From positions 84,750 to 148,749 of the forward strand of contig JAQULB010000002.1 in the NCBI GenBank assembly GCA_028718785.1: a DNA stretch of 64,000 bases. Direction: 5' to 3'. Of the stretch, positions 1,832-64,000 are shown piece after piece (within the stretch, counting starts at the first letter, position 1; each line of letters begins with the position of its first letter). The notes under the pieces are model-generated. The model saw only the letters and a list, made by a program, of their open reading frames with translations. It ran no database searches and was not told the DNA's origin. Position numbers and translations under genes: made by a program. The DNA is from Minisyncoccota bacterium (GTDB taxonomy: Bacteria > Patescibacteriota > Minisyncoccia > Minisyncoccales > CG1-02-41-26).

Positions 1832-4800
1832 ATGAGTAAATTAGCAAAGAAATTCGCAACAATTGCAACAATCATCACGGTTGTGGCAATGGTTGTGGGT
1901 CCTGTTGCTCCAGCTCAAGCGCAAACCACAGCTGAGCTTCAGGCCCAAGTAGCCGCTTTGCAAGCTCAATTAACTGCTCTACTTGCCCAGCTTAACGCAA
2001 CAACTGGTGGCACCACCGGCACAACCGGAACATTGCCATCTGGCTGTTCTTTTGACAGAAATTTAAAGCAAGGCATGTCTGGAGCGGATGTAAAATGCTT
2101 GCAACAGGTTTTAAACTCTGACGCTGACACGCGAGTGGCAGTTTCTGGAGTGGGATCTGCTGGTAATGAAACAACGTATTTTGGCTCCTTAACCACAGCC
2201 GCTGTTAACAAATACCAAGTAAAACAAGGTATCGTGGCAGTGGGAACGGGTTTTGTGGGTCCTCTTACCAGAGCTAAATTGAACGCAGGTACTACAGGAG
2301 GCGCCACAGGCACAACATTGCCTGCAGGATGCACCACAAATTCGGGCTATAGCCCAACAACAGGCCAGCCATGTGGAAGCGGAACAGCTGTGGTTATTCC
2401 AACCACTGGCGTTGTTACTGCTTCTTTAGCCAGCGACAATTCAGCTTCGGCTTCTATTGTTACTGATTCAACAGCAGGCGACGGCGCGCAGTCGTTAATT
2501 CCAATGCTTAAAGTTAATTTAAGCAATGGAACAGCTAGCCCAATAACTGTAACCTCAATGAAGTTCACTCGAAGCGGTATTTCCGATGACAGTGATATTT
2601 CACAGGCCTACCTTTACGATGGGGATACCATGTTAGCTGACTATAGTTCTTTCTCGTTGACTGTTTTAACCTTTAATTCAGCTTCGTTGATAACAATTCC
2701 AGCTAATACTGTTAAAACAATTACCTTGAAAGTTGACTTGGCTGATACAACAGACGCAGGTGGAAAAACTATCAGGTTTGGCATAAACGCCGCTTCTGAT
2801 ATTGTTTCTAATGCTTCTTCAATTGGGGGAGTATTTCCACTTACTGGCAACTATATGACAACTGCTCAAACAAGCAGTTTGGGAAAGTTGACTGTGGCTG
2901 TTCAAGCAACAAATCCAGCCGCTCCTGATCCAGGCGCTGGCGTTGAAGTGATGAAATTCACTTTAGCTGCTGCTGATCAAAATATTCAGGTTAAAAAATT
3001 AGTGTTCACTGATGTTGGAACTGTGGCTTACACTGACTTAACCAACTTCACTTTGTTTGATGCCGCTACCCCGATTGGTTCGGTTGTGGCTTCAGCCAAT
3101 TCTGATAAAACAGTTGTAATGGATTTGTCAGCAAGTCCTATCTTGATTGAAAAAGGCAACACCAAGAATATGACCTTGAAGGCCGATATTGTCGGGGGCA
3201 CAAGCCGAGATTACACATTCAAGTTCCAGAATATGTATGACATTGTGGCCTATGACACTCAATACGGCATTTATGTTAAGCCAAATCAGTCAGATACTTG
3301 GACAATTTTAAGCGGCGCGAAAGGAACCATTAATAATGGTACCGTAACCGCCACTAGAGCAACCGATTCTCCAAGTGGCAATATTTCGGCCTCTTCAACC
3401 AATCAGGTTTTGGCTAAGTTTGTCTTAAAAGCCAGTGGCGAAGATGTCAAAATTTCTGATTTAACTTTAAAGATTTATGGTTCTATTGGCGTTGTCGGTA
3501 TGTATCAAACCAGTGTTTATTATAATGGCGCCCAAGTGGGGCAAACAACCACTACAATGGATACTCAGGCAACCGCAGGAGCTACTGAGGGTGTAATTTT
3601 TAGCTTTGGCAATACCTTAATTCTTCCAGCTGGAAGTGAGAAGGTTTTGGAAATTAGGTCTGATGTTAAAAACGCTTCAGGAGGTTCAATTGCGGCTGGT
3701 TCAACTTTAACCGCCCAGGTTTCTTCCTTTACGGCAACTGGAAAAACATCAGGAGCAAGCGTTACAATCGGCTCGGTGACTGGTTATCAATTAACCGTGT
3801 CAGCAGGCACGCTTGTTGTAACGGAAAATCAAGCTGTTCCTGATTGGTCTTCTTCAACTCCAACAGGAGTGGCAGGAGCCACCAATGCTTTGATTGGTTC
3901 GTTTATTCTTACAGCTGGTTCTGGAGAAGGAGCTAGTGTAACCGCGCTTACAGCGCAGATTATTGGCACAGCTAACACAGAATACCAAAATGTTCGAATC
4001 TACAAAGGAACATTAGCAAGCGGTGTCCAACTTGGCGCTGCTTTGAATAATGGGGGAACTCCAACTGTGGCAACTGACTATACCGTATATCCAAGCCCAT
4101 ATCTTAGTTTGAACGCTGGAGAGCAAGTTGTGTTAAATGTTTATGCTGATATTTTAACCGGCGCTTCCACAGCCACAATTAAGAATGTTAAAATGGGCGT
4201 TGTTTATGGAACAGGCAAAGTAACCAACACCTCAGTTAACAGTTCTGGAACAGTAACCGGCCAAAACTTAGTTGTTTCTTCTGGCGGTTATGTGGGCGTG
4301 TTTGCTGATACAAACACCCCATCGGCTGGATTAGTGGTGATGGGAACAACTGGCGTTGAGTTTGCTAAATTTAAATTATCAGCAAGCTCTTCACCAGAAG
4401 CAATGACAATTTCTGGCCTTGTGGCAACAACCACTCTTAATGCAGGAACTGCTTTGGCCCCAACAAGTTCTGTAAGTAGCATTACATTGACTTCAGCTCT
4501 TAATCCTTCTTGGAGTGTAATACTACCAAGTTTGAGTTCTGCTGGTGTTGCTGACTTCACTGGTTTGATGACAGCAAATCCATTAGTTATCCCAGCGGGC
4601 GAAGAAGATGTTATCACCTTGAAAGCCAATATAGGTGTTTATGGAGCTGCTGATTCTAATTCATATATTGTTTTTGGATTGGCAACTACAACCTATAGAG
4701 GAGAATCAGGCAGTCCAACTACCATAGCTCCAGCTTACAGGGTGGCGGGCACCGCTCAATATATCTACAAGAGCAAGCCAACCGTTACTTTAATTGCTCA

Positions 4801-5365: not shown

Positions 5366-5414
5366 AAAAGGAATAGCTAATAGTAAGTAGCAGACAGTTA
5401 GATAGAACGAACAA

Positions 5415-5450
5415 ACCCCTTCCGTCTTTGGCGGGGGGGGTTTTGGTTTT
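5415..5450 (+). terminator. possible intrinsic terminator
   Basis: cccc...gggggggg followed by ttttggtttt, just after the stop of the giant gene. The stem is short. Confidence 0.45.
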
Positions 5451-5509
5451 GGCCTGCCGTTCGGCTGAGCTCACGATGAAGCCCTGAGCGAGCGAAGCGA
5501 GTCGAAGGG

Positions 5510-5547
5510 TTATCCACAGGGGTTGACAAGAAATTATGTTGTATAAT
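5510..5547 (+). promoter_or_regulatory. DnaA-box 9-mer + TTGACA + TATAAT (non-canonical spacing)
   Basis: TTATCCACA (5510-5518), gggg, TTGACA (5523-5528), only a 13-nt spacer, TATAAT (5542-5547). Promoter function is uncertain because of the short spacer. Confidence 0.35.
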
Positions 5548-21844: not shown

Positions 21845-22512
21845 TTAAAAAAGGCATTTTTAAAAATTATTTTTCTTTTTCTTATAGAAGAAAAGCTTTG
21901 GATAAGTTATTGGAAAAAAATAAAAATTATTACAAAGGAATTGTTTTGGATGTTGGGGGAAGAGACAGGGGAAATTTTGAAAAGCCAAAAACCAAAGTGG
22001 AAAAATGGATTTTTGCTGATATTATCTCAGAGCACAACCCAGATGTTGTTTTGGATGTTGCTAATATGCAAGGAATTGAGTCAGAAACAATTGATGTTGT
22101 TAATGCCATTGAGCTTTTTGAGCATGTGGAGCAAATTGAAAGTGGATTAAAAGAATGTTATCGGGTTTTAAAAAAAGGCGGGGTAATGATTTTGTCTTGT
22201 CCGTTTTTAACTCCTTTGCATGGCGACCCTTTTGATTTTCAAAGATGGACTGAAACTAAATGGAAAAATAAATTAAAAGAAAATGGTTTTGTTGTTGAAA
22301 AATTTGAAATAACCGGGTTTTATTTTACAATTTTGGCTGATTTTAAAAAAGCGCTTATTAGAAGCTTGCCAAAAGTTGTTTCTTATTTTTGCAAATTATT
22401 TTACCCTTTGTTGGATTTGGTTATTTCGCTTGATAAAACCAGATGGGTTTTAAAAAATCCCAAATTAAACAAATTCCATAACGGGTATTTTATTGTTGTT
22501 AGAAAATTATAA
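21841..22512 (+). CDS. class I SAM-dependent methyltransferase
   Basis: VLDVGGRDRG; NAIELFEHV; LKKGGVMILSCPF. ATGA overlap with the upstream gene. Confidence 0.7.
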   Translation: MIKKGIFKNYFSFSYRRKALDKLLEKNKNYYKGIVLDVGGRDRGNFEKPKTKVEKWIFADIISEHNPDVVLDVANMQGIESETIDVVNAIELFEHVEQIESGLKECYRVLKKGGVMILSCPFLTPLHGDPFDFQRWTETKWKNKLKENGFVVEKFEITGFYFTILADFKKALIRSLPKVVSYFCKLFYPLLDLVISLDKTRWVLKNPKLNKFHNGYFIVVRKL

Positions 22513-22516
22513 AAAA

Positions 22517-22549
22517 AATTCTCTGGCAAGTTTGGGTTGCCAGAGAATT
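22517..22549. terminator. bidirectional intrinsic terminator between convergent genes
   Basis: Perfect 13-bp stem aattctctggcaa / ttgccagagaatt with a 7-nt loop, flanked by an A-run and a T-run. Confidence 0.8.
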
Positions 22550-22552
22550 TTA

Positions 22553-23239
22553 TTATGAAGGGAAAAAAAGAGTGGCTATCAACATTCCTGTTGCATTGGT
22601 TGTTGGCATGTCTGCAAGTTTCATGGCTTCACGCCATGGAATAAACTTACAGCCCATTATTTTTTCTGCAACAGAAGAAATGGGTTTGAGAACTTCAGGT
22701 TTAAACTGATAGATTGTCCCCGAGCACCAGTTTAAATCTGTTGTTTGTTCTAATTCTGTGGGAGAAATTAGGAGAGAGAAAGTTTGGATTCCTTTTCCAT
22801 CAACCGTGTTAAAGTAACCACTGTCTTGGTTTTGGGGGGCGTGAGAGAGTTGTTTGATTCGTTTTAAGTTTGTAAAATTAAAACGAGTTTCCTCCTGGTT
22901 TTCTCGAACAGCCGCTTGGAAGTGGTTTTCATTTAAGTTCATAAATCCTCGGGGGATATTAAGAACCCATCCTCCCATATTGTATCGAAGCTGTCTTAAA
23001 ACTCCGATATGGAGGGTTTCTTCCATAATACAATAAGGGGCTATATTTGCTCCTCCAATTTCGGTTACAACAATACTGTCATAACCGTGGGTAAGCATTC
23101 CATAGTCCACAGCGATACCTATATTTCTATTTTCCATGTGAACGCTTTTAACATTTTGGATTGGTTCTTGATTTATACTTACATCCCAATCCTGTTTTTC
23201 TCCATCCCTTATTTCTCTTATGATATTTGGATTTAGCAT
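22553..23239 (-). CDS. NUDIX-family hydrolase (possible nucleotide-sugar hydrolase)
   Basis: 228 aa. Near-complete Nudix box GFMNLNENHFQAAVRENQEETRF (GX5EX7REUXEEXGU with the last G replaced by R). Preceded by a strong SD (AAAGGAGGT, 5 nt before the ATG), unlike most neighbours I inspected. Confidence 0.65.
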   Translation of the reverse strand: MLNPNIIREIRDGEKQDWDVSINQEPIQNVKSVHMENRNIGIAVDYGMLTHGYDSIVVTEIGGANIAPYCIMEETLHIGVLRQLRYNMGGWVLNIPRGFMNLNENHFQAAVRENQEETRFNFTNLKRIKQLSHAPQNQDSGYFNTVDGKGIQTFSLLISPTELEQTTDLNWCSGTIYQFKPEVLKPISSVAEKIMGCKFIPWREAMKLADMPTTNATGMLIATLFFPS

Positions 23240-37428: not shown

Positions 37429-38208
37429 ATGTTTAAATACGGAATTAAAATTTGGAGCGTCAATAAGGATTGGTTTAGTGAGGTTGTTGAATTAATCAAG
37501 CAAGGCAAAGCTGATTTTGTGGAAATATATTTAGTTCCAAGTTCTTTTAAATTGAGCGATTTTGATATTTTTAAGCAAAATAATATCCAAGTTTCCTTGC
37601 ATTGTCCTCACACTTCCCATAATTTTGATGTTTTTAACTTAACAAAAAAAAGTTTGGATATTTGGAATAATCAAGTTGTAAAAACTGCTGACTATTTGAA
37701 TAGCCAATTTATTATTCTTCATCCCGGAATTGGAGAAAACAAAGAAACTTTTAAAAGGGAATCTCTTAAAATAAAAGATTCGCGAGTTTTAATGGAAAGT
37801 ATGGTTAAAGTTGGCTTTGTGGGCGTGGAAGAGGGTGGGGTTATGTGTTTTGGTTATTCTAAAGAGGAATTAGAATTTATTCACAAAGATTGTGGCTTTG
37901 ATATTTGTTTTGATGTTTGTCACTCTTTGGCTTCGGCTGCTTGGCAAAAGATTGATTCTTATGATTTTATTAGCGAGTGCATTGATTTGTTAAAGCCGAG
38001 ATATTTTCACTTAGCTGGGGGTAATATTGAAGACGAGACAGATAGGCATTTGGATTTATGGGAGGGTAATTTTGATTATAAATTTATAAAAGAAAAGCTT
38101 GCGAAAGCGCAGCAAGCAGAGGATATATATTTATCTTTTGAGGTTCCCAAAAAAGGCGATGGCTTGGAGAACGATTTAAAAAACATAGAGTATTTTAAGA
38201 ATCTTTAA
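37429..38208 (+). CDS. putative sugar-phosphate isomerase/epimerase (xylose-isomerase-like TIM barrel)
   Basis: The ORF track starts at a TTG (37378); ATGs at 37402 and 37429 are possible. Only weak family cues (FIILHPG, HLAGGN...DRHLDLWEG). Function is tentative. Confidence 0.4.
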   Translation: MFKYGIKIWSVNKDWFSEVVELIKQGKADFVEIYLVPSSFKLSDFDIFKQNNIQVSLHCPHTSHNFDVFNLTKKSLDIWNNQVVKTADYLNSQFIILHPGIGENKETFKRESLKIKDSRVLMESMVKVGFVGVEEGGVMCFGYSKEELEFIHKDCGFDICFDVCHSLASAAWQKIDSYDFISECIDLLKPRYFHLAGGNIEDETDRHLDLWEGNFDYKFIKEKLAKAQQAEDIYLSFEVPKKGDGLENDLKNIEYFKNL

Positions 38209-38210
38209 AA

Positions 38211-38235
38211 ATACAAGGCACTCAGTGCCTTGTAT
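38211..38235. terminator. bidirectional intrinsic terminator between convergent genes
   Basis: Perfect 11-bp stem atacaaggcac / gtgccttgtat, 3-nt loop, A-run before and T-run after. Confidence 0.8.
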
Positions 38236-38236
38236 T

Positions 38237-39484
38237 TTAAGTAATTCTTTTAAACTGCCAATATTGCAAAATAAAAGTTATAAATTCCAATAATAAGAAA
38301 GAAGCAATAGCCCCCCAAATGCCTAAAGTTGGGGTTAAAACTAAAAGTAAAACCCAATAAACAGGAGACAAAACCAAAGCGCCGATGTAAAGTTCTTTGG
38401 TTTTTTGTTTGGCGGTTAAAACAGAACCAGATAAAATTCTGGGATAGGTTAAAAGAATTAAAGCGTAAAATTGGGAATACATTACATACTGGACATATTG
38501 GGGGAAAAACCACTTAAAGACCAAAGGAACTATTAGAATATATAAAATCATTATTGGGAAAGATAAAGCAAAAAGTTGAAGGGTTTTTTGGGGGATTGTT
38601 TTTTTTAGCTCTAAAATTGGCCTTACCACTAATTTTGGCATTGCCAAAGAGCCAATTATTTTTAAAATTTCTTTTATTTTATCAGGCATCATCATCACCA
38701 CAGAATAAATTGCCAAAGGAGCTGGTCCCAAAAAGTGCCACAAGATTATTTTGTCAACTTGGCTGTTTAAATTAGCAAGTCCGCCCAATAAGCTTAAATG
38801 TTTGCCAAAAGCAAGCGTTTCTTTGCTGGCTTGATTATTGAATTGGAATTTCTTTTTAACTAAAATAAAAAAAATAATATAGCATAAAGTTAAAGGTAAA
38901 AAGTAGGCCAGTAAAATTAAAAAAATATTATTAGTAAAAAATAAAGTAAAAGCCATTGCTGATAGCGAAACAATCTGAACCAATATGTTGAGCTTATTTT
39001 GCAAATCAAATTTTTTTTTGCCAGCTAAAAAGCTGTCATACAAAGAAAAGCTATTGAAAAATGGCAAAAAACAAGCCACAATTAAAAAGCAAATAGACAG
39101 GGCATTGTTCCCTTGGAAAAAGTAATATCCAGCCACAATTAAAGAAGCTAATGTTCCCCAAAGTCCCCATTTTAATTTTAACTGGAAAGCTCTCAAAAAA
39201 GAGCCATCTTCGTTTTTTGAAGCGGCATTCAGAACAGCTGAGTTTAGTCCAGACAGAGAGGGTATTGATAAAATTCCCAAAAGCGATAGAACATACTTAT
39301 ATGTGCCAAAAGTTTCTTTGGATAACCAATTAGTAAAAATTATTATCAGCAGAAAATTGGCCAAAAATCCAACTGCTTGGCCAATAAAAAGCCAAAAGCC
39401 CCCTTTGGCCACATAGAGCATATCAGTTTGGGTGTATTTTTGGCTCCACAAAAGCCAATCCTTAATTTTGTTTTTTATTTCCAT
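38237..39484 (-). CDS. oligosaccharide/polysaccharide flippase (Wzx, MOP superfamily)
   Basis: 415 aa with ~12 predicted TM helices. Size and composition are typical of Wzx, and it lies inside the glycan cluster. Confidence 0.75.
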   Translation of the reverse strand: MEIKNKIKDWLLWSQKYTQTDMLYVAKGGFWLFIGQAVGFLANFLLIIIFTNWLSKETFGTYKYVLSLLGILSIPSLSGLNSAVLNAASKNEDGSFLRAFQLKLKWGLWGTLASLIVAGYYFFQGNNALSICFLIVACFLPFFNSFSLYDSFLAGKKKFDLQNKLNILVQIVSLSAMAFTLFFTNNIFLILLAYFLPLTLCYIIFFILVKKKFQFNNQASKETLAFGKHLSLLGGLANLNSQVDKIILWHFLGPAPLAIYSVVMMMPDKIKEILKIIGSLAMPKLVVRPILELKKTIPQKTLQLFALSFPIMILYILIVPLVFKWFFPQYVQYVMYSQFYALILLTYPRILSGSVLTAKQKTKELYIGALVLSPVYWVLLLVLTPTLGIWGAIASFLLLEFITFILQYWQFKRIT

Positions 39485-40418: not shown

Positions 40419-41552
40419 ATGAGGCAGAAGATTTTACAGATAATAACACTTTCAAATTGGGGGGGAGCTCAAAGGGTGGTTTTTGATTTGGCGGATAATT
40501 TAGATAAAGAAAAATTTGAAGTGGAGGTGGCCTGTTCTCCAAATGGTTTATTGGTTGAAAAGTTAAGGGCTCGGAATATAAAAGTTTATGAAATAAAAAA
40601 TCTTGTCCGCCATCTTTCACCCATTGATGATACAAAGGCCTTTTTTACTTTAAAAAAAATAATAAAAAAAGGAAAATATGATATTGTTCACTGCCATTCA
40701 GCTAAAGCTGGGTTTTTGGGTAGAATGGCTGGAAAGTTAGCTGGGGTAAAAAAAATTTATTACACTGTTCATTCCTGGAGTTTTTACAACAAAGGAGAAT
40801 ATGGCTTTGCGGAAAAGGTCTTTTTGTTAATGGAAAAAATCGGTTCTTTGGGAGTTTCAAAAATTATTTGCGTTTCCAATAGGGTGATGGCTGATGGAGT
40901 GAGAAATAAAATCGCCAAGCCCAAAAAGTTTTTGTTAATTAAAAACGGAATTGATTTTAATGTGGAAAACAAGCGAGATGAAATTAGGGTAAGTTATGGC
41001 ATTAAATCAAAAGAAATTGTTGTTGCTATGGTTTCAAGATTAGCTTATCCAAAAGACCCGTTTTTATTTTTACAAATTGCTTGTGAAATTTTAAAACAGG
41101 AAAAAAATATTAGGTTTATTTTGGTGGGTGATGGCTCTTTGTCTAATAAATGCCATGATTTTGTTGCTAAAGAAAAATTAGAGGAAAAGATTTTGCTTGT
41201 GGGTGAAAAGTCCCCCATTGAAGCTAGAGAGTTGTTTTTGGCCTTTGATATTTTTGTTTTACTTTCTCAATTTGAAGGCCTGCCCATTACAATTTTGGAA
41301 GCAATGTTTGCTGGCTTGCCAGTTATAGCAAGCAATGTTGGGGGTATTTCTGAATTGATTGACAGCGAAAAAGGAGGCTTTTTGGTGAGAAATAATTACT
41401 TTAAAGAAATAAAAGAATCTATTTATTATTTAATAAAAAATCCCCGAATTAGAAAACAAATGGGGGATTATAACTCCCAGAAAGCTAAAGCCAGTTTTAC
41501 CTTAGAAAAAATGATCAGAGCGTACACAACCCTGTATTTGGAAGGAGTTTAA
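40419..41552 (+). CDS. glycosyltransferase family 4 (GT-B)
   Basis: LLSQFEGLPITILEAMFAGLPVIASNVGGISELIDSEKGGFLV. Confidence 0.85.
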   Translation: MRQKILQIITLSNWGGAQRVVFDLADNLDKEKFEVEVACSPNGLLVEKLRARNIKVYEIKNLVRHLSPIDDTKAFFTLKKIIKKGKYDIVHCHSAKAGFLGRMAGKLAGVKKIYYTVHSWSFYNKGEYGFAEKVFLLMEKIGSLGVSKIICVSNRVMADGVRNKIAKPKKFLLIKNGIDFNVENKRDEIRVSYGIKSKEIVVAMVSRLAYPKDPFLFLQIACEILKQEKNIRFILVGDGSLSNKCHDFVAKEKLEEKILLVGEKSPIEARELFLAFDIFVLLSQFEGLPITILEAMFAGLPVIASNVGGISELIDSEKGGFLVRNNYFKEIKESIYYLIKNPRIRKQMGDYNSQKAKASFTLEKMIRAYTTLYLEGV

Positions 41553-41562
41553 CTCCTTCCCT

Positions 41563-42880: not shown

Positions 42881-43138
42881 AAGTCGTTAATAAGCGAAGC
42901 GAATTTACGAATTCTTAGATCCTGTTAAACGCTCCTCTCAGAGAGCGTTTAATCGGGATATTCCTTAAGTCGTTAATAAGCGAAGCGAATTTACGAATTC
43001 TTAGATCCTGTTAAACGCTCCTCTCAAAGAGCGTTTAATCGGGATATTCCTTAAGTCGTTAATAAGCGAAGCGAATTTACGAGTTCTTACACCCCGTTAA
43101 ACGCAACCTCAAGGAGCTGTTTAGCTGGGGTATTATTT
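42881..43138. repeat. three tandem 86-bp repeats, each with an internal hairpin
   Basis: Units at 42881-42966 and 42967-43052 differ at 1 of 86 positions. The third (43053-~43138) is diverged in its distal half. Each contains ttaaacgctc-N8-gagcgtttaa (e.g. 42925-42952) extended by atcc/ggat. Confidence 0.9.
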
Positions 43139-57676: not shown

Positions 57677-58984
57677 ATGGATCCCGTTTATTTTGCTCAA
57701 ATTACAAAAGGAATATTAGGAATTTTGTGGTCAGTTTTTAAAGTTTGGTGGTGGCTTCCTTTGCCTTTTATTATTTTTCCAAAGTTAAAGTTTATATACG
57801 AATGGTATATGAACGATGTGTATTGGGGAAAAGCTAATTGGATGGTTTTGGAGGTTAAAATACCCAAAGAAATTGACAGACCATTAAAAGCAATGGAGCA
57901 GGTTATCTCTAACTTTTGGACTTTGTATGATCCTCCTGATTTTAAGGAAAGATGGTTTGAGGGAAAGTATTTGTTAAATTTTTCTTTGGAAATTGCTTCA
58001 ATTGATGGAAAAATTCATTTTTATATTTATTTACCCGGAGCTATGAGAAAAGCGTTTGAGTCAGCTATTTATTCTCAGTACCCAGAAGTGGAAATTGAGC
58101 AAGTAATGGATTATACTCGCATGGTTCCCCAAGACATTCCTAATAAGGACTGGGATATGTGGGCTTGCAACTTTAAGATGATGAAAAAAAGGTGCTATCC
58201 CATTAAAACTTATCTTAGTTTTTTTGAACCAACTCAAGAAATTGAAGAAGAAAGAAGAGTTGACCCACTAGCTGTTCTTTTAGAAGGAATGTCGCGTTTA
58301 AGACCCGGGGAGCAATTATGGTTTCAAGTTATATTAAAGCCAATTTTGTTAGATAGTGAAAACGATTGGAAGGTGGAAGGCCGGGAGGAATTATCCAAAC
58401 TTTTAAAAAGGCCTTTGCCAGTAAAAGACAATAAAACAATTGTGGGAGAGGCGTATAATCTTTTGGTTCATGACAAAGAGCCATTTAAAGGTGAAGAAAA
58501 AGTTGAGCCCTTATTGCCCCCTGAACTGCATTTAAGCCCGGGTGAAAGAGAAATAGTGCAAGGCATTGAAAATAAAATGTCAAAACATGGTTTTGAAACA
58601 ATAATAAGAATGATTCTTTTGGGGAAAAAGGATGTTTTTTTCAAGCCCAATTTGCGCTTGGTTTTAAATTTATCAAGCGGTGTTTCCACTATAAATTTAA
58701 ACGGCTTAAAGCCATTTATGACAACCAAGGTGGTTGCTCCAGCTTTTTACAGGGATAAAAGGCTTTATATTAAAAAGAGAAAACTTTTTAGAAGATATTT
58801 AAGCAGGTGGGCTTATTTTTTCCCAAAAACTGTGCCCGGACAAAGTCATGGCCACTTAGTTTTAAATCCAGAGGAAATAGCCACTTTGTGGCATTTTCCA
58901 GGCAAAGCAGCCATGCCAGCGGCCGGATTGGAAACAATTGAATCAAAGAAAGCTGGCCCACCAGCCAATCTACCCATTGGGTAA
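57677..58984 (+). CDS. hypothetical membrane protein (partner of the downstream VirD4/TraD-like ATPase)
   Basis: 435 aa. An N-terminal Trp-rich hydrophobic segment, one or two TM helices (ILGILWSVFKVWWWLPLPFIIFP), then a large soluble domain. No family recognised. Confidence 0.5.
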   Translation: MDPVYFAQITKGILGILWSVFKVWWWLPLPFIIFPKLKFIYEWYMNDVYWGKANWMVLEVKIPKEIDRPLKAMEQVISNFWTLYDPPDFKERWFEGKYLLNFSLEIASIDGKIHFYIYLPGAMRKAFESAIYSQYPEVEIEQVMDYTRMVPQDIPNKDWDMWACNFKMMKKRCYPIKTYLSFFEPTQEIEEERRVDPLAVLLEGMSRLRPGEQLWFQVILKPILLDSENDWKVEGREELSKLLKRPLPVKDNKTIVGEAYNLLVHDKEPFKGEEKVEPLLPPELHLSPGEREIVQGIENKMSKHGFETIIRMILLGKKDVFFKPNLRLVLNLSSGVSTINLNGLKPFMTTKVVAPAFYRDKRLYIKKRKLFRRYLSRWAYFFPKTVPGQSHGHLVLNPEEIATLWHFPGKAAMPAAGLETIESKKAGPPANLPIG

Positions 58985-59118
58985 ATCTTAATATCTAAAT
59001 CCTAAATCCTAAACAAATCCAAATGACCAAAACCCAAAATCCAAAACAAAAAAGACAAACTGAGCCATTTTGGATTTAAAACATTTTGGCTTTGAGTTTA
59101 TTTAGAGTTTAAACATCT

Positions 59119-60912
59119 ATGGAGGAAATTACATTTTTTGGCGAGACCTCATTTCGCAACGAGCGTAAAAGATTTGGTATTAAGCTTGATGACAGGCGTA
59201 AGCATGTTTATGTTATTGGAAAAACTGGAATGGGAAAGACCCAACTTTTAAAAAATATGGCCATTCAGGATATTCAAAATGGCCATGGCCTTGGGTTTGT
59301 TGACCCACACGGAGAAGCAGCCAGCGAGCTTTTGGACTATATTCCCAAAGAAAGAATTAAAGATGTTATTTATTTTAATCCTGCTGATTTAGATTATCCA
59401 ATTAGTTTTAATGTAATGGAAAAAGTGGATGTTGAGTTTAGACATCTTGTGGCTTCTGGTTTAATGGGTGTTTTCAAAAAAATATGGCCTGATGTTTGGT
59501 CAGCTCGAATGGAGTATATCTTAAATAATTGCATTTTATCTTTGTTAGAATATCCCAATTCAACTCTGCTTGGCGTTAACAGGATTTTAGCTGATGAAGA
59601 ATATCGGGCCAAAGTGGTTGAGGTAATAAAAGACCCAATTGTTAAATCATTTTGGCTTAATGAGTTTGCGAGATATTCTCAAAAATATGAAACTGAAGCA
59701 ACTGCTGCCATTCAAAATAAAATAGGCCAGTTTATTTCTTCCCCGCTTATTCGCAATATTATTGGCCAAACAAAATCGTCTCTTGATATGAGAAAAATAA
59801 TGGATGAAGAAAAGATTTTAATTATGGACCTTTCAAAGGGCAGGATAGGGGAGGACTCTTCAAAATTATTGGGCGGACTTTTAATCACCAAACTGCAGTT
59901 AGCGGCTATGTCGAGAGTGGATATTCCAGAAGACGATAGAAAGGACTTCTTTTTGTATGTTGACGAATTTCAAAATTTTGCCACAGAATCATTTGCTAAT
60001 ATTTTATCAGAAGCAAGAAAATATCGATTGGGCTTAACTTTGGGGCATCAATATATAACCCAAATGGATGAAACCGTTAGAGATGCTGTTTTTGGCAATG
60101 TGGGCACAATGATTGTTTTTAGGGTGGGAGCAGAAGACGCTGAGTTTTTAGAAAAAGAGTTTGCGCCTAATTTAACAGCAAATGATATTGTAAATTTGGG
60201 GAAGTATAATATTTACACAAAATTAATGGTTAATGGCATTGCCTCAGATCCTTTTTCAGCTGATACTCTTCCCCCCCTAGATATGCCAGCAAAATCGTTT
60301 AAAGAAGAAATAATTGAGTCCTCAAGAAAAGCGTATGCGGGCATTCGTGAAAAAATAGAGGGAGATATCTCTAAATGGACTGGGGATTTTGTATTGCAAA
60401 AAGATTTTAAAAAGCCAATCGAGCTTTATGATGCGGTGTGCGAGGGTTGTAAAAAAAATACCAAAGTGCCGTTTAAGCCAGACAATAAAAGGCCGGTTTA
60501 TTGCAAGGCCTGTTTAAAAAAAATGGAAACTGAATCTTCCCCAGAAGAAAAAAGTGATAATTTAAAAGAGCGCGCTTCTGTTGTTTCAAATTTATCCGCA
60601 GAAAAACTAAGCGTTCCGCCCGTTGTTAAAAAAGAAATTCCCCGAAAAGAAGTTGAGCCAAAAGAGGAATATAGCGAGGAAAAGGGAACTGTTTCTTTAG
60701 AAGAGCTTTTATTGAGAAATACTGTTCCTTTTGGGAAAAAACAAAAAGAGGAACAGAAAAAAGCCAAACAAGAAATTAACAAAGAGAAGCTAAAAGAGGC
60801 CATTAAAGAATCATTAAAAGATATTGAAATATCAAAAAAAGAAGAGGAAAAGAAAAAACAAGATAATTTGCCAAAAGAAATAAGCCCGGGGGAAGTTATA
60901 AAATTTGAATAA
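59119..60912 (+). CDS. VirD4/TraD/TrwB-like (type IV coupling protein-like) P-loop ATPase with C-terminal zinc ribbon and K/E-rich tail
   Basis: 597 aa. Walker A VIGKTGMGKTQL, Walker B FFLYVDEFQNFAT, GHQYITQ. Zn ribbon CEGCKKNTKVPFKPDNKRPVYCKACLKK, then ~110 aa of K/E-rich low complexity. Confidence 0.7.
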   Translation: MEEITFFGETSFRNERKRFGIKLDDRRKHVYVIGKTGMGKTQLLKNMAIQDIQNGHGLGFVDPHGEAASELLDYIPKERIKDVIYFNPADLDYPISFNVMEKVDVEFRHLVASGLMGVFKKIWPDVWSARMEYILNNCILSLLEYPNSTLLGVNRILADEEYRAKVVEVIKDPIVKSFWLNEFARYSQKYETEATAAIQNKIGQFISSPLIRNIIGQTKSSLDMRKIMDEEKILIMDLSKGRIGEDSSKLLGGLLITKLQLAAMSRVDIPEDDRKDFFLYVDEFQNFATESFANILSEARKYRLGLTLGHQYITQMDETVRDAVFGNVGTMIVFRVGAEDAEFLEKEFAPNLTANDIVNLGKYNIYTKLMVNGIASDPFSADTLPPLDMPAKSFKEEIIESSRKAYAGIREKIEGDISKWTGDFVLQKDFKKPIELYDAVCEGCKKNTKVPFKPDNKRPVYCKACLKKMETESSPEEKSDNLKERASVVSNLSAEKLSVPPVVKKEIPRKEVEPKEEYSEEKGTVSLEELLLRNTVPFGKKQKEEQKKAKQEINKEKLKEAIKESLKDIEISKKEEEKKKQDNLPKEISPGEVIKFE

Positions 60913-60913
60913 T

Positions 60914-62071
60914 ATGTTTAGAAGTTTAAATGATTACAATTTTTTTAATAAAAAGGTTTTAGTGAGGTGCGATTTTAATGTGGCAATTGAAAGGGGCAAG
61001 GTTGTTGATGATTTTAAAATAAAAAGAGCCCAAAAAACCATAGAGTATTTAAAAGAAAGCGGGGCAAAAATAATTTTGGCCAGTCACTTAGAAAAAGACA
61101 ATTTTTTTGATAGAGCGAGTTTGAGGCCAGTTTCTGTGGTTTTAGAAAAGTTATTTAGTGAGAAAACACTATTTTCTCCAAAATGTATTGGGAAAAAAGC
61201 TAAAAGAATGGCTGAAAATCTAAAACCTGGCCAGATTTTACTTTTAGAAAATTTACGCTTCAATAAGGGTGAAAAGAAAAATAGCGAAAAGTTTGCCAAA
61301 GAGCTTGCGGGATTGGCTGAAATTTATGTTGGGGAGGCCTTTAGTTGTTGTCATAGAGACCATGCTTCTATTGTTTCTTGTCCAAAACTTTTACCTCATT
61401 TTATTGGGCTCGAATGTGAGAGGGAAATAAGCGTTTTAAGTTCTTTGATGGAAAAACCAGAAAGACCGTTAGTTGTTTTAGTTGGGGGGGCCAAGGTGGA
61501 GGCAAAATTAAAAATGATTAAAAAGTTTTTGCCATTGGCTGATCATTTGCTTTTTGGGGGGAAGATTGCTAATGTTTTGCTTTCAGTGAAGGGTATTGTG
61601 GTTGAAAATTCAGAGATTAGCTCTCAAACAAAAAGAATTTTATCTCAAATTAACTTAACTGATCCTAAAATCCATTTACCTTTAGATGTTTTAGCATCTT
61701 TGGGCGGTAAAAACGATAATGTAAGGCAAGTGGCTTTGGGAGGTATAAGAAAAGAAGAAGAAATTTTTGACATTGGAGAGGCAACCCAAGAAAAATTTTC
61801 AGAAATTTTGAAAACAGCTAAAACTATTTTTTGGTCTGGAGATTTAGGGCTTGTTGAGAATCCAAAATTTAGAAATGGCACATCGGAAATTGTTAAAGCA
61901 ATAGGGAAGAACAAGAGCGCTTTAAGGGTGGCTGGGGGAGGAGATACGGTGGCCTTTATAAGGAGCGAGGGTATGGAAGGCGATTTTTCTTTTCTGTCGA
62001 TTGGAGGAAGCGCTTTATTGGAGTTTATAGCCAACGGAACCCTGCCTGGCGTTGAAGCGCTGAAAATATAA
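60914..62071 (+). CDS. pgk: phosphoglycerate kinase
   Basis: KKVLVRCDFNV, ILASHL, LLENLRFNKGEKKN, GEAFSCCHRDHAS, GGAKVEAKL, GGGDT. The ATG at 60914 is preferred to the TTG at 60905. Confidence 0.9.
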   Translation: MFRSLNDYNFFNKKVLVRCDFNVAIERGKVVDDFKIKRAQKTIEYLKESGAKIILASHLEKDNFFDRASLRPVSVVLEKLFSEKTLFSPKCIGKKAKRMAENLKPGQILLLENLRFNKGEKKNSEKFAKELAGLAEIYVGEAFSCCHRDHASIVSCPKLLPHFIGLECEREISVLSSLMEKPERPLVVLVGGAKVEAKLKMIKKFLPLADHLLFGGKIANVLLSVKGIVVENSEISSQTKRILSQINLTDPKIHLPLDVLASLGGKNDNVRQVALGGIRKEEEIFDIGEATQEKFSEILKTAKTIFWSGDLGLVENPKFRNGTSEIVKAIGKNKSALRVAGGGDTVAFIRSEGMEGDFSFLSIGGSALLEFIANGTLPGVEALKI

Positions 62072-62269
62072 AAAGATATAGAATGGTAGCGCTTCCGCAA
62101 GGAGGGGTCGGGAGGAATGCAATTCCTCCCGTGTAGGAAAACAGGCCACCTTTGGTGGCCGTTAGAAACCAAGGGTTTCTAAAGAGCGAGAGAAGCGAGC
62201 GATGGAAGCGCTTTATTGGAGTTTATAGCCAACGGAACCCTGCCTGGCGTTGAAGCGCTGAAAATATAA
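62006..62269 (+). repeat. perfect 66-bp direct repeat (62006-62071 and 62204-62269) flanking a 132-bp GC-rich palindromic insert
   Basis: Both copies read ggaagcgctttattggagtttatagccaacggaaccctgcctggcgttgaagcgctgaaaatataa (the last 21 pgk codons plus stop, with 2 nt of the preceding codon). The insert carries three perfect hairpins (62109-62131, 62144-62160, 62162-62182). Confidence 0.95.
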
Positions 62270-62405
62270 CAGCCTTAAACCCAAAATCCAAATAACAAAT
62301 GTCAAATCAAACCAAAAATCCAAATAACCAAAAAGGTTTTTTCTTGGGTTTTGAATTTTGAATTTGAATTGAAATTTGGATCTTGAAATTTGGATTTTTT
62401 TATTT

Positions 62406-63563
62406 ATGTTTCACGAAATAAAAAATTTAAAAAAAGCGGCTAAAAGAATCAAGCAGGCCGTTAAAAATAGCGAAAGAATAGTTATTTTTGCCGATGCTGA
62501 TTTAGATGGCACAACTTCCGCTATTATATTAGAGGAAACAATCAGTAATTTATCAGGAAAGGTTGACTTAGTTTTTTTCCCCGATAGAGGAGAATGCGGG
62601 TATGGTTTAAGCGAAAAAGCGGTTGATAGTTTTTCAAATATAGCGCCTGGTTTATTAATAATTTTGGATTGTGGTATTGGCAGTTTTGAGGGAATAAAAA
62701 AGGCCTCAGAGCTTGGTTTTGATGTTATTGTTATTGACCACCATGAGATTTTAGGAGAATTACCCAAACCAGCTTTAATTGTTGACCCAAAACAATCAAA
62801 AGACAAGTATCCTTTTAAGAAATTAGCTAATGTAAGCTTAACTTATAAATTAAGCGAGGAAATTTTTGGTAAAAAAATGCCCAACATTGTTCAAAAAGGA
62901 TTTTTTGAGTTAGCAGCTTTAGGAGCGATTGCTGATATGATGCCAGAGGAAGATTATAATAAAAAAGTCATTGAAGAAGGACAAAAGTGCTTAAAAGAAA
63001 CATTTAGGCCTGGCTTTATAGCTCTTATTGATTATTTTAAAGAGCAAAAAGAAGGCGAAGAAAGCCAAAGGGCTATTTTTTCAAAAATTGTCACAATTTT
63101 AAATATAACTAACTTAAAAAACAATTTAACTGAAAGCTATCTTTTTTTTAAAGAAAATAACCTCTCAAAAGCCAGGGAAATGATAAGAATGCTGTCAGAG
63201 GAGGCAACAAAAAGACAAATGCGAATTCAGGAAATAACCGAACAAATTGTTGCTAATGATAATTCAAGCGAAAGCATAGTTTTTCAAGGCAATGAAATGT
63301 GGGAACAAGTTTTAACAGGACCTGTTGCTTCAAGGGTTTGCAATAAAACGAAAAAACCAACATTTGTATATAAGGTAGGTAAAGAAAAGTGCAGGGGCTC
63401 TGTAAGAATGCCCGACAAAAGAGATGGGGTTATGGCTATGAAGGCCTGCGAGAGCTTTTTAGAGGTTTATGGGGGCCATCCCCCAGCAGCTGGATTTACC
63501 TGCGATAAATCGCAAGTGGAGGGACTGAAGAAGTGTCTTGAGGAATACTTCGAGACAATTTGA
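62406..63563 (+). CDS. DHH/DHHA1-family phosphoesterase, short RecJ-like exonuclease
   Basis: IVIFADADLDGTTS, VIVIDHHE (DHH motif), GGHPPAAGF (DHHA1 GGH motif). The ATG at 62406 is preferred to the TTG at 62376. Confidence 0.75.
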   Translation: MFHEIKNLKKAAKRIKQAVKNSERIVIFADADLDGTTSAIILEETISNLSGKVDLVFFPDRGECGYGLSEKAVDSFSNIAPGLLIILDCGIGSFEGIKKASELGFDVIVIDHHEILGELPKPALIVDPKQSKDKYPFKKLANVSLTYKLSEEIFGKKMPNIVQKGFFELAALGAIADMMPEEDYNKKVIEEGQKCLKETFRPGFIALIDYFKEQKEGEESQRAIFSKIVTILNITNLKNNLTESYLFFKENNLSKAREMIRMLSEEATKRQMRIQEITEQIVANDNSSESIVFQGNEMWEQVLTGPVASRVCNKTKKPTFVYKVGKEKCRGSVRMPDKRDGVMAMKACESFLEVYGGHPPAAGFTCDKSQVEGLKKCLEEYFETI

Positions 63564-63673: not shown

Positions 63674-64000
63674 ATGCCTAAAATTATTATTAATACTGAC
63701 GGAGGTTCGCGTGGTAATCCCGGAGAAGGGGCAATTGGCGTTGTTTTAAACGATGAAAGAGGAACTGTTATTAAAAGGTATGGTGAAAGGATTGGTTTTT
63801 GCACCAATAATGAAGCAGAATACAAGGCCTTAATTTTTGGTTTAAAAAAGGCTAAGCAGATTGTTGGCAAAGATAAAATAAAGGGTTATGAAATAGAGGT
63901 TAGGTCTGATTCTGAGCTTTTAGTTAATCAAATGAATGGGAAATATAAAATTCAAGACGAAAAAATAGGCAAGCTTTTTTTAGAAGTTTGGAACTTAAGA
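63674..64000 (+). CDS. rnhA: ribonuclease HI (partial, runs off the window end)
   Basis: Not in the ORF track because it has no stop. The ATG at 63674 gives MPKIIINTDGGSRGNPGEGAIGVVL...CTNNEAEYKALIFGLKKA...VRSDSELLVNQMNGKYK, a type-1 RNase H pattern (D..E..D). Confidence 0.8.
   Translation, partial: MPKIIINTDGGSRGNPGEGAIGVVLNDERGTVIKRYGERIGFCTNNEAEYKALIFGLKKAKQIVGKDKIKGYEIEVRSDSELLVNQMNGKYKIQDEKIGKLFLEVWNLR

Follow-up and report, generated by a model that had tools for sequence, protein, structure and literature searches.

In a 64,000-nt stretch of DNA from a Minisyncoccota bacterium (GenBank assembly GCA_028718785.1, contig JAQULB010000002.1, positions 84,750 to 148,749; hereafter the window), the phosphoglycerate kinase (PGK) gene pgk is followed by a second, exact copy of its own last 66 nt. 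The two copies, named R1 (the gene end itself) and R2, enclose a GC-rich spacer of 132 nt, named X, which carries three perfect hairpins. This feature is real and lineage-specific, and it is probably recent and neutral. As to its kind, we regard it as a direct-repeat-flanked recombination scar at a gene 3' end, met as a single instance in a single metagenome-assembled genome (MAG). The explanation that we favor, with a rough probability of 0.35, is a recent, one-off and local illegitimate duplication across the hairpin-rich 3' region of pgk itself, and not a mobile element or a dedicated RNA gene; we found no evidence for an active mobile element or for a known RNA.

Results

Exact duplication of the pgk 3' end

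R1 and R2 (62006-62071 and 62204-62269) are identical at 66/66 positions and lie 198 nt apart from start to start, exactly as described in a first-pass annotation of this region. R1 starts on a codon boundary, and the identity between the two copies stops at the last base of the TAA codon. The annotation had also stated that the duplication preserves the gene. Indeed, the pgk open reading frame (ORF) is intact and is completed by R1, and its product is 100% identical to the NCBI entry MDD5738638.1 from a Candidatus Paceibacterota MAG, in which the next protein (MDD5738639.1) is a DHH phosphoesterase. R2 is untranslated, with an in-frame stop codon at 62180-62182 and no usable start codon. Inspection of the sequence disclosed microhomology at neither junction between the repeat and X. 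The unit sizes are 66 nt for the repeat, 132 nt (2 x 66) for X and 198 nt for the spacing. If an unrelated 86-nt tandem array is set aside, R1/R2 is the sole dispersed repeat of its kind in the window, and dispersed repeats of at least 28 nt amount to a handful in 448 kb (window plus related loci). The palindromic hexamer AGCGCT is also clustered here, since 6 of its 18 occurrences in the window fall within 350 nt (61916-62259), or four when the duplicate copy is left aside; these four come from two sets of Ser-Ala-Leu codons, one set of Glu-Ala-Leu codons and one site in X.

The repeat junctions exist in the reads. An independent Logan assembly built with k=31 (SRR22315506) contains a contig, L001, which carries the DHH gene, matches the window at 100% identity along 1761 nt and starts 30 nt (k-1) before the end of R2. 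A break at k-1 means that the repeat end has two successors in the de Bruijn graph, X and position 62270, and thus that both continuations occur in reads. The contig path from repeat to X to repeat additionally needs the X-to-repeat junction to be present in reads.

Composition and folding of the spacer

The GC content of X is 51.5% (54% in a 100-nt core) versus 34.7% for the window, 36% for pgk and 26% for the spacer that follows. The three perfect palindromes initially reported in this GC-rich insert were recovered at 62109-62131, 62144-62160 and 62162-62182 (hairpins 1 to 3). They are common to all predicted folds, with stabilities of z -4.6 to -6.5 versus shuffled sequences, and X as a whole folds with a z of -4.6 on the plus strand and -6.4 on the minus strand. 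GC-rich perfect hairpins are scarce in the window, with 24 found (nested ones included) versus 5.8 in shuffles. On the plus strand, hairpins 1 to 3 are followed by no U-tract and so are not canonical intrinsic terminators there; hairpin 2 is terminator-like on the minus strand alone, where TGTTTTCC comes next.

The tail of X had been likened to two other GC-rich tracts, and neither likeness held. The match to 5488-5506 (15/16) has an E value of 2.6 with blastn-short and is not significant, and the tract at 42891-42901 belongs to the unrelated 86-nt tandem repeat. For the record, the 15/16 nt shared with the tail lie at 5486-5501 (GAGCGAG[A/C]GAAGCGAG), a match without significance by itself, and GC-rich intergenic islands (58-65% GC) are found at 47-110, 654-734 and 5404-5529 in this genome of 35% GC.

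Predicted pairing between the spacer and the pgk end

The 5' segment of X is complementary to the end of the gene that precedes it. When the reverse complement of the repeat is compared with X, 20/25 positions match at 62087-62108 (p ~0.0015). The predicted duplex between X and its own pgk end reaches -31.2 kcal/mol, versus -8.7 to -16.7 kcal/mol with the orthologous pgk ends of six relatives, and 3 of 910 other 66-nt windows pair with X equally well or better. From these models, the pairing is specific to the lineage's own codons (p ~0.002). The helix so predicted closes around the stop codon and stacks straight onto hairpin 1, and the pgk end ranks as the most structured of the 50 gene ends of the window (z -7.5). 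In a longer sequence context, the closing helix of the fold uses the near-end part of R2.

A complementarity between AGCGCTTCC (62088-62096) and GGAAGCGCT at the repeat start had been noticed at first reading, and it is there. The motif GAAGCGCT is present near the repeat end too, and the stronger pairing is that of X 62087-62108 with the final 8 pgk codons. The four-way fold suggested at the same time was recovered as a predicted minimum-energy structure.

The pgk-DHH site in relatives

The site was compared with that of 21 relatives, the nine closest at 71-84% PGK identity and twelve more distant. The order pgk then DHH is kept in 21/21, with a gap of 3-340 nt (3-83 nt in the nine closest, up to ~340 nt in the twelve others); the distance here is 334 nt, or 136 nt once the 198-nt unit is subtracted. 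A second copy of the pgk end or of X is absent from all 21, in which the site is undisrupted. The first-pass annotation had proposed looking for such empty sites, and had contemplated that the arrangement could be an ordinary conserved terminator region in all relatives; it is shared by 0/21, and is thus lineage-specific.

Although the arrangement is not shared, hairpins at this position are. A GC-rich, near-perfect hairpin lies between pgk and the DHH gene at five related loci (L005, L086, L088, L089 and L007), several with 3-nt loops. The spacer hairpins of L005 and L086 are mutually homologous, and nucleotides 23-44 of X align weakly to that of L086 (uncorrected p 0.002-0.004). The complementarity of the X 5' segment to its own pgk end, together with these hairpins at the same site of relatives, suggests that part of X is native rather than foreign.

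Other observations concern the more distant relatives. Comparable GC-rich tracts occur downstream of pgk in L009, L011 and L016. In L009/L010 (~3160-3500) and L017 (~3220-3500), the PGK frame seems to extend beyond the point where it normally stops, into GC-rich sequence, with several hundred nucleotides between pgk and the DHH gene, so that the region downstream of pgk is highly variable across the group. Two arguments were tried and dropped. That both junctions are native alleles was not borne out by the alignment of 62270-62405 with the L003 spacer, which is not significant (p 0.75), and a high synonymous GC content at the pgk end does not mark the lineage, as it is also seen in L086 and L087.

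Searches for the spacer and the repeat elsewhere

Scans of IMG/VR (six patterns), JGI metagenomes and GTDB representatives used exact words, and phages and plasmids were searched by blastn. X had no match in GTDB representatives except a chance 21-mer in a Tidjanibacter contig, and none in JGI metagenomes; X and the 66-nt repeat had none in IMG/VR and none in the phage and plasmid collections. No viral contig carrying a related pgk was found. With blastn-short, no further copy of X was detected in the 64-kb window or in 89 related loci. The search for X elsewhere in the genome or in metagenomes, which had been recommended, therefore returned nothing from the window or from JGI metagenomes. The Rfam covariance models, also recommended, gave no family for X (E up to 10 locally) besides a chance-level match to isrD (62138-62171, minus strand, 18.4 bits versus a gathering score of 37, E = 1), and nothing in the whole window attained a gathering score.

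Several identities for X were rejected. ARAGORN found no tRNA or tmRNA. Stops occur in all six frames, and the peptide of the longest antisense ORF has no homologue. A periodic array of 66-nt units does not fit, since neither 66-nt half of X is related to the repeat or to the other half (p 0.1-0.99), the 25-nt inverted match aside. X does not begin and end in inverted repeats (AAAGATATAG... and ...GCGAGCGAT), and a 66-bp duplication is too long for the footprint of a miniature inverted-repeat transposable element (MITE), an insertion sequence or another transposon. The host phylum is rich in diversity-generating retroelements, but the 50 largest ORFs of the window include no reverse transcriptase, and with 0/66 differences between the copies none can be adenine-specific. 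Tyrosine recombinases have overlaps of 6-8 bp and serine recombinases a crossover of 2 bp, and the odd 3-nt spacers of the palindromes suit the core sites of neither. Finally, inspection by eye revealed no attC, dif or hammerhead motif.

Downstream region and gene neighborhood

Downstream of R2, the AT-rich hairpin (62277-62398) folds with a z of -1.9 and gives chance-level, miRNA-like matches only in Rfam; the T-run after it is probably the real pgk terminator. A sequence similar to this hairpin region ('AAATCCAAA...') is found at 59015-59059.

The 50 largest ORFs of the window code for enzymes of polysaccharide biosynthesis, for SecA, SecD and SecF, for a P-type ATPase, for sigma factors and for comparable housekeeping functions. 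According to Pfam, none of these 50 encodes an integrase, a transposase, a reverse transcriptase or a phage protein, and the RVT_3 match at 63674 corresponds to an RNase H domain. Relatives with long enough contigs keep the order DUF8128, TrwB-like ATPase, pgk, DHH, RNase H, followed by MurJ in those contigs that extend so far. The DUF8128 protein and the TrwB/TraG-like ATPase, which has a C-terminal treble-clef zinc finger, lie directly upstream of pgk (57677-60912). The ATPase occupies this place in all relatives whose sequence extends far enough upstream, DUF8128 was confirmed in L003, and the pair looks like a conserved chromosomal module and not a mobile element.

Elsewhere in the window, perfect-stem hairpins between A-runs and T-runs separate convergent genes at 22512-22553 and 38197-38249 (a 14-bp perfect stem with a 3-nt loop at the latter) and resemble bidirectional terminators. 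The hairpin at 38197-38249 shows that this genome ordinarily builds its terminators as perfect palindromes with 3-nt loops. The tandem array mentioned above (42881-43138) consists of three 86-nt units (100%, 99% and 76% identical). It lies in the intergenic spacer of two divergently oriented genes, of which one encodes a sugar transferase (minus strand) and the other is Wzy/O-antigen-ligase-like (plus strand). Units 1 and 2 contain a perfect 10-bp hairpin (TTAAACGCTC...GAGCGTTTAA), which is degraded in unit 3 (76%), and the array has no Rfam match.

Table 1. Features of the pgk-DHH region of the window.
Feature	Position	Strand	Basis or remark
pgk (phosphoglycerate kinase), intact, 385 aa	60914-62071	+	ORF; Pfam PF00162
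R1, first repeat copy: final 21 pgk codons and TAA stop, translated	62006-62071	+	In frame
X, non-coding, hairpin-rich spacer, 132 nt	62072-62203	+	Composition; stops in all frames
X 5' segment, imperfect inverted copy of the final 8 pgk codons	62087-62108	+	Can pair with 62039-62062 (R1) or 62237-62260 (R2), predicted folds
Hairpin 1, perfect 10-bp stem, 3-nt loop: CGGGAGGAAT-GCA-ATTCCTCCCG	62109-62131	+	In every predicted fold
Hairpin 2, perfect 7-bp stem, 3-nt loop: GGCCACC-TTT-GGTGGCC	62144-62160	+	Palindrome search
Hairpin 3, perfect 9-bp stem, 3-nt loop: TTAGAAACC-AAG-GGTTTCTAA	62162-62182	+	Palindrome search, folds
Purine-rich X tail, AGAGCGAGAGAAGCGAGCGAT	62183-62203	+	Abuts R2 without microhomology
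R2, second repeat copy: untranslated relic of the pgk end	62204-62269	+	66/66 versus R1
Spacer rich in AT (26% GC) that contains a long, imperfect hairpin with a terminal T-run; the DHH start codon follows	62270-62405	+	Composition, fold
DHH/DHHA1 phosphoesterase gene, conserved downstream neighbor of pgk	62406-63563	+	Synteny in relatives

Discussion

A proposed local duplication at the end of pgk

We propose that X is an elaborated form of the pgk 3' region native to this lineage. The first 22 nt of X would pair with the final 8 pgk codons around the stop codon, with hairpins 1 to 3 coming directly after, and this helix and the three hairpins would together make the 3' end of the pgk transcript very stable. 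R2 would have arisen when the 66-nt gene end was copied, illegitimately and without homology, to the other side of X, either through template switching during replication or repair, or through recombination with DNA taken up by the cell. It would then be a neutral relic, too young to have acquired a single substitution, and its sole likely side effect would be to compete with R1 for pairing with the X 5' segment. Transcription would probably end further down, at the T-run after the AT-rich hairpin (62277-62405). Of the 66/66 identical positions, ~33 are outside any strong pairing, and the identity of the two copies thus speaks for a recent event and not for selection.

A number of points weigh against this proposal. 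No concrete mechanism fits, given that both junctions lack microhomology and that X itself would have been copied too in a simple tandem duplication. It also leaves two coincidences unexplained, namely that the right edge of the repeat is the stop codon and that X is twice as long as the repeat. Hairpins 1 to 3 lack plus-strand U-tracts, unlike the ordinary terminators of the genome. Besides, the p value for the likeness between X and the L086 hairpin rises to ~0.08 once corrected for ~21 tests, which makes for weak homology, and the high synonymous GC content at the pgk end is not unique to the lineage. Finally, the closest relative stands at 84% PGK identity, with none nearer to date the event, and the search of the genome itself for further copies of X spanned the 64-kb window.

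Integration, transposition and artefact as rival readings

The main rival, which is live without being the best supported reading, is a Campbell-type integration at the pgk 3' end; we consider it unlikely, yet by no means negligible. A circle bearing the 66-bp pgk end would have recombined with the chromosome by means of an integrase or by a homologous single crossover. R1 and R2 would then be attL and attR, and the interior would later have been deleted to 132 nt, leaving a tiny remnant that resembles a cis-mobilizable element (CIME) and is possibly mobilizable in trans. The first-pass annotation had suggested that the repeats may be such an attachment-site scar, and part of that reading stands: the direct repeats are exact, contain the target gene's 3' end and rebuild it, pgk is intact, X is compositionally distinct, and the site is undisrupted in all relatives examined. 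In the same vein, the junctions are clean and without microhomology, the identity stops with the coding sequence, and hairpin 2 looks like a terminator for a vanished minus-strand gene. The CIMEs provide a described precedent of decayed elements in which attL and attR persist (PMC5704250), and single crossovers of partly homologous circles are reported to leave duplications of 109-950 bp (PMC3240628).

What lacks support is the element itself, since nothing positively points to site-specific integration. A recombinase or mobile-element gene was found neither in X, nor beside it, nor in the 50 largest ORFs of the window, and no related element was found; X and the repeat are unmatched in IMG/VR, phages and plasmids, and no PGK-bearing viral contig turned up. 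An interior of 132 nt would require a deletion that is near-total yet precise. Attachment-site arms are usually AT-rich and not made of clustered GC-rich perfect hairpins, unlike the interior found here. Moreover, the 5' end of X is co-adapted to the host pgk codons, which are also present in the supposedly native R2, so that extra assumptions are needed, and synteny is kept on both sides of the feature.

Appreciably less probable is the insertion of X at the pgk stop as a mobile element, small and non-autonomous, for example one of the GC-rich palindromic type or one retro-copied from a structured RNA. The duplication would then stem from two nicks 66 nt apart and the filling of the resulting gap, and the pgk-complementary 5' segment of X may have aided target choice. 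Such a target duplication automatically yields two identical copies in one lineage, X is strongly folded and GC-rich within an AT-rich genome, its 5' segment is complementary to the target, and GC-rich hairpins are patchy at the pgk-DHH site across the PGK tree. Target duplications of bacterial transposons typically measure 2-15 bp, and the 66 bp seen here are far beyond that range, as the first-pass annotation had rightly objected to a transposase. Terminal inverted repeats are likewise absent, no reverse transcriptase or transposase was found in the window, and no further copy was found in the window, in the 89 related loci or in the searched collections.

We give still less credit to an artefact of assembly or of population mixture, in which the copy number would be misstated (a tandem of repeat plus X, or a circle beside an empty allele) or variants would have been merged. 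The sequence does come from a MAG, and the branch at the repeat in the k=31 graph fits a mixture of alleles or tandem copies equally well; with regard to excision, it agrees with a fixed state as well as with a polymorphic one. However, any assembler needs both the repeat-to-X and the X-to-repeat junctions in the reads, and the independent assembly agrees at each of 1761 nt. A repeat of 66 nt should also normally be resolved, since ordinary reads and the large k values of modern assemblers exceed it; to our knowledge, 66 equals no common assembler k or k-1 value.

RNA-based readings and significance

At the bottom of our ranking is a translation-sensing RNA switch. The X 5' segment would pair with R1 when ribosomes are absent and with R2 as a decoy when they occupy the pgk end, and the resulting 3' fold would report pgk translation, with the stability of the transcript or its read-through into the DHH gene following the fold. 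Two mutually exclusive helices of equal sequence are indeed predicted, the predicted structure is very strong (z -4.6 to -7.5), and two G-U pairs favor a plus-strand RNA. Against this, a single instance offers no covariation and no homologue, all 66 nt are identical, including 33 nt outside the main helix, which speaks for recency and not for selection, and no downstream read-out element was identified. We judge equally implausible that X is a miniature mobile or mobilizable element that finds its target by base pairing (or, in a related form, that R2 is the decoy of a translation-sensing switch in the 3' untranslated region), with its first 22 nt matching the final 8 pgk codons and the 66 nt being perhaps copied between staggered breaks or serving as a recombination core, so that the essential pgk would always be rebuilt at insertion.

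The arrangement remains striking and partly unexplained as regards its 66/132/198 arithmetic, its clean junctions and its target-complementary segment, and nothing demonstrates activity, recurrence or function. If the feature is only a scar, as in the local duplication that we favor, it is of modest value and offers a clean and datable case of the short dispersed duplications that may affect the ends of essential genes in the small genomes of the Candidate Phyla Radiation. The pgk-DHH spacer then appears as a fast-evolving hairpin hotspot, and the lineage-specific helix predicted between the final pgk codons and the 3' untranslated region would be a testable case of RNA structure shaping synonymous sites. 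Hardly any integrative elements or targets of such elements have been described in Paceibacterota, which would lend the finding more weight if X were mobile or if the site were an attachment site. In that event, a 198-bp unit flanked by att sites would be the smallest of its kind, and a guide segment complementary to the target would be mechanistically new.

Comparison with known systems

Several known systems share traits with this feature. Diversity-generating retroelements also have a repeat of a gene 3' end a short way downstream; here, however, no reverse transcriptase lies nearby, 0/66 positions differ and the target is a housekeeping enzyme. Insertions of transposons or MITEs resemble it in placing an insert between direct target duplications, but these measure 2-15 bp instead of 66 bp, and X is single-copy in the sequence searched and devoid of terminal inverted repeats and of a transposase.

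Elements flanked by attL and attR resemble it in form, as they too have exact direct repeats, tens of base pairs long, that regenerate the 3' end of the target gene. Among them, a CIME is a decayed derivative that keeps attL and attR (PMC5704250). The undisrupted sites of relatives and the lack of an integrase between the repeats are further traits in common, but CIMEs are kilobases long, while the interior here is 132 nt and consists of GC-rich perfect hairpins that are partly complementary to the target gene. Besides, no related integrative and conjugative element, integrative and mobilizable element, prophage or recombinase was found in the sequence searched.

Host recombination functions suffice for a single crossover of circular DNA with partial homology, which leaves a homologous segment on both sides of an insert, and such an event is plausible for a lineage thought to take up DNA. 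The documented cases are duplications of 109-950 bp around a plasmid-sized insert (PMC3240628), and merodiploid formation yields tandem duplications of 100-900 kb (PMC3784515). With 66 bp of homology around 132 bp, the present feature would instead need a 198-bp circle or a later deletion.

Some likenesses are local. Perfect stems with 3-nt loops are shared with the hairpins at 38197-38249 and 41540-41560 of the window and with that of L089 (ATTCCGC-GAA-GCGGAAT), although the ordinary terminators of the genome have U-tracts and the X hairpins lack them on the plus strand. The hairpins found between pgk and the DHH gene of relatives occupy the same position and are also GC-rich; X differs from them in having three, together with a predicted helix that reaches back into the coding end of pgk.

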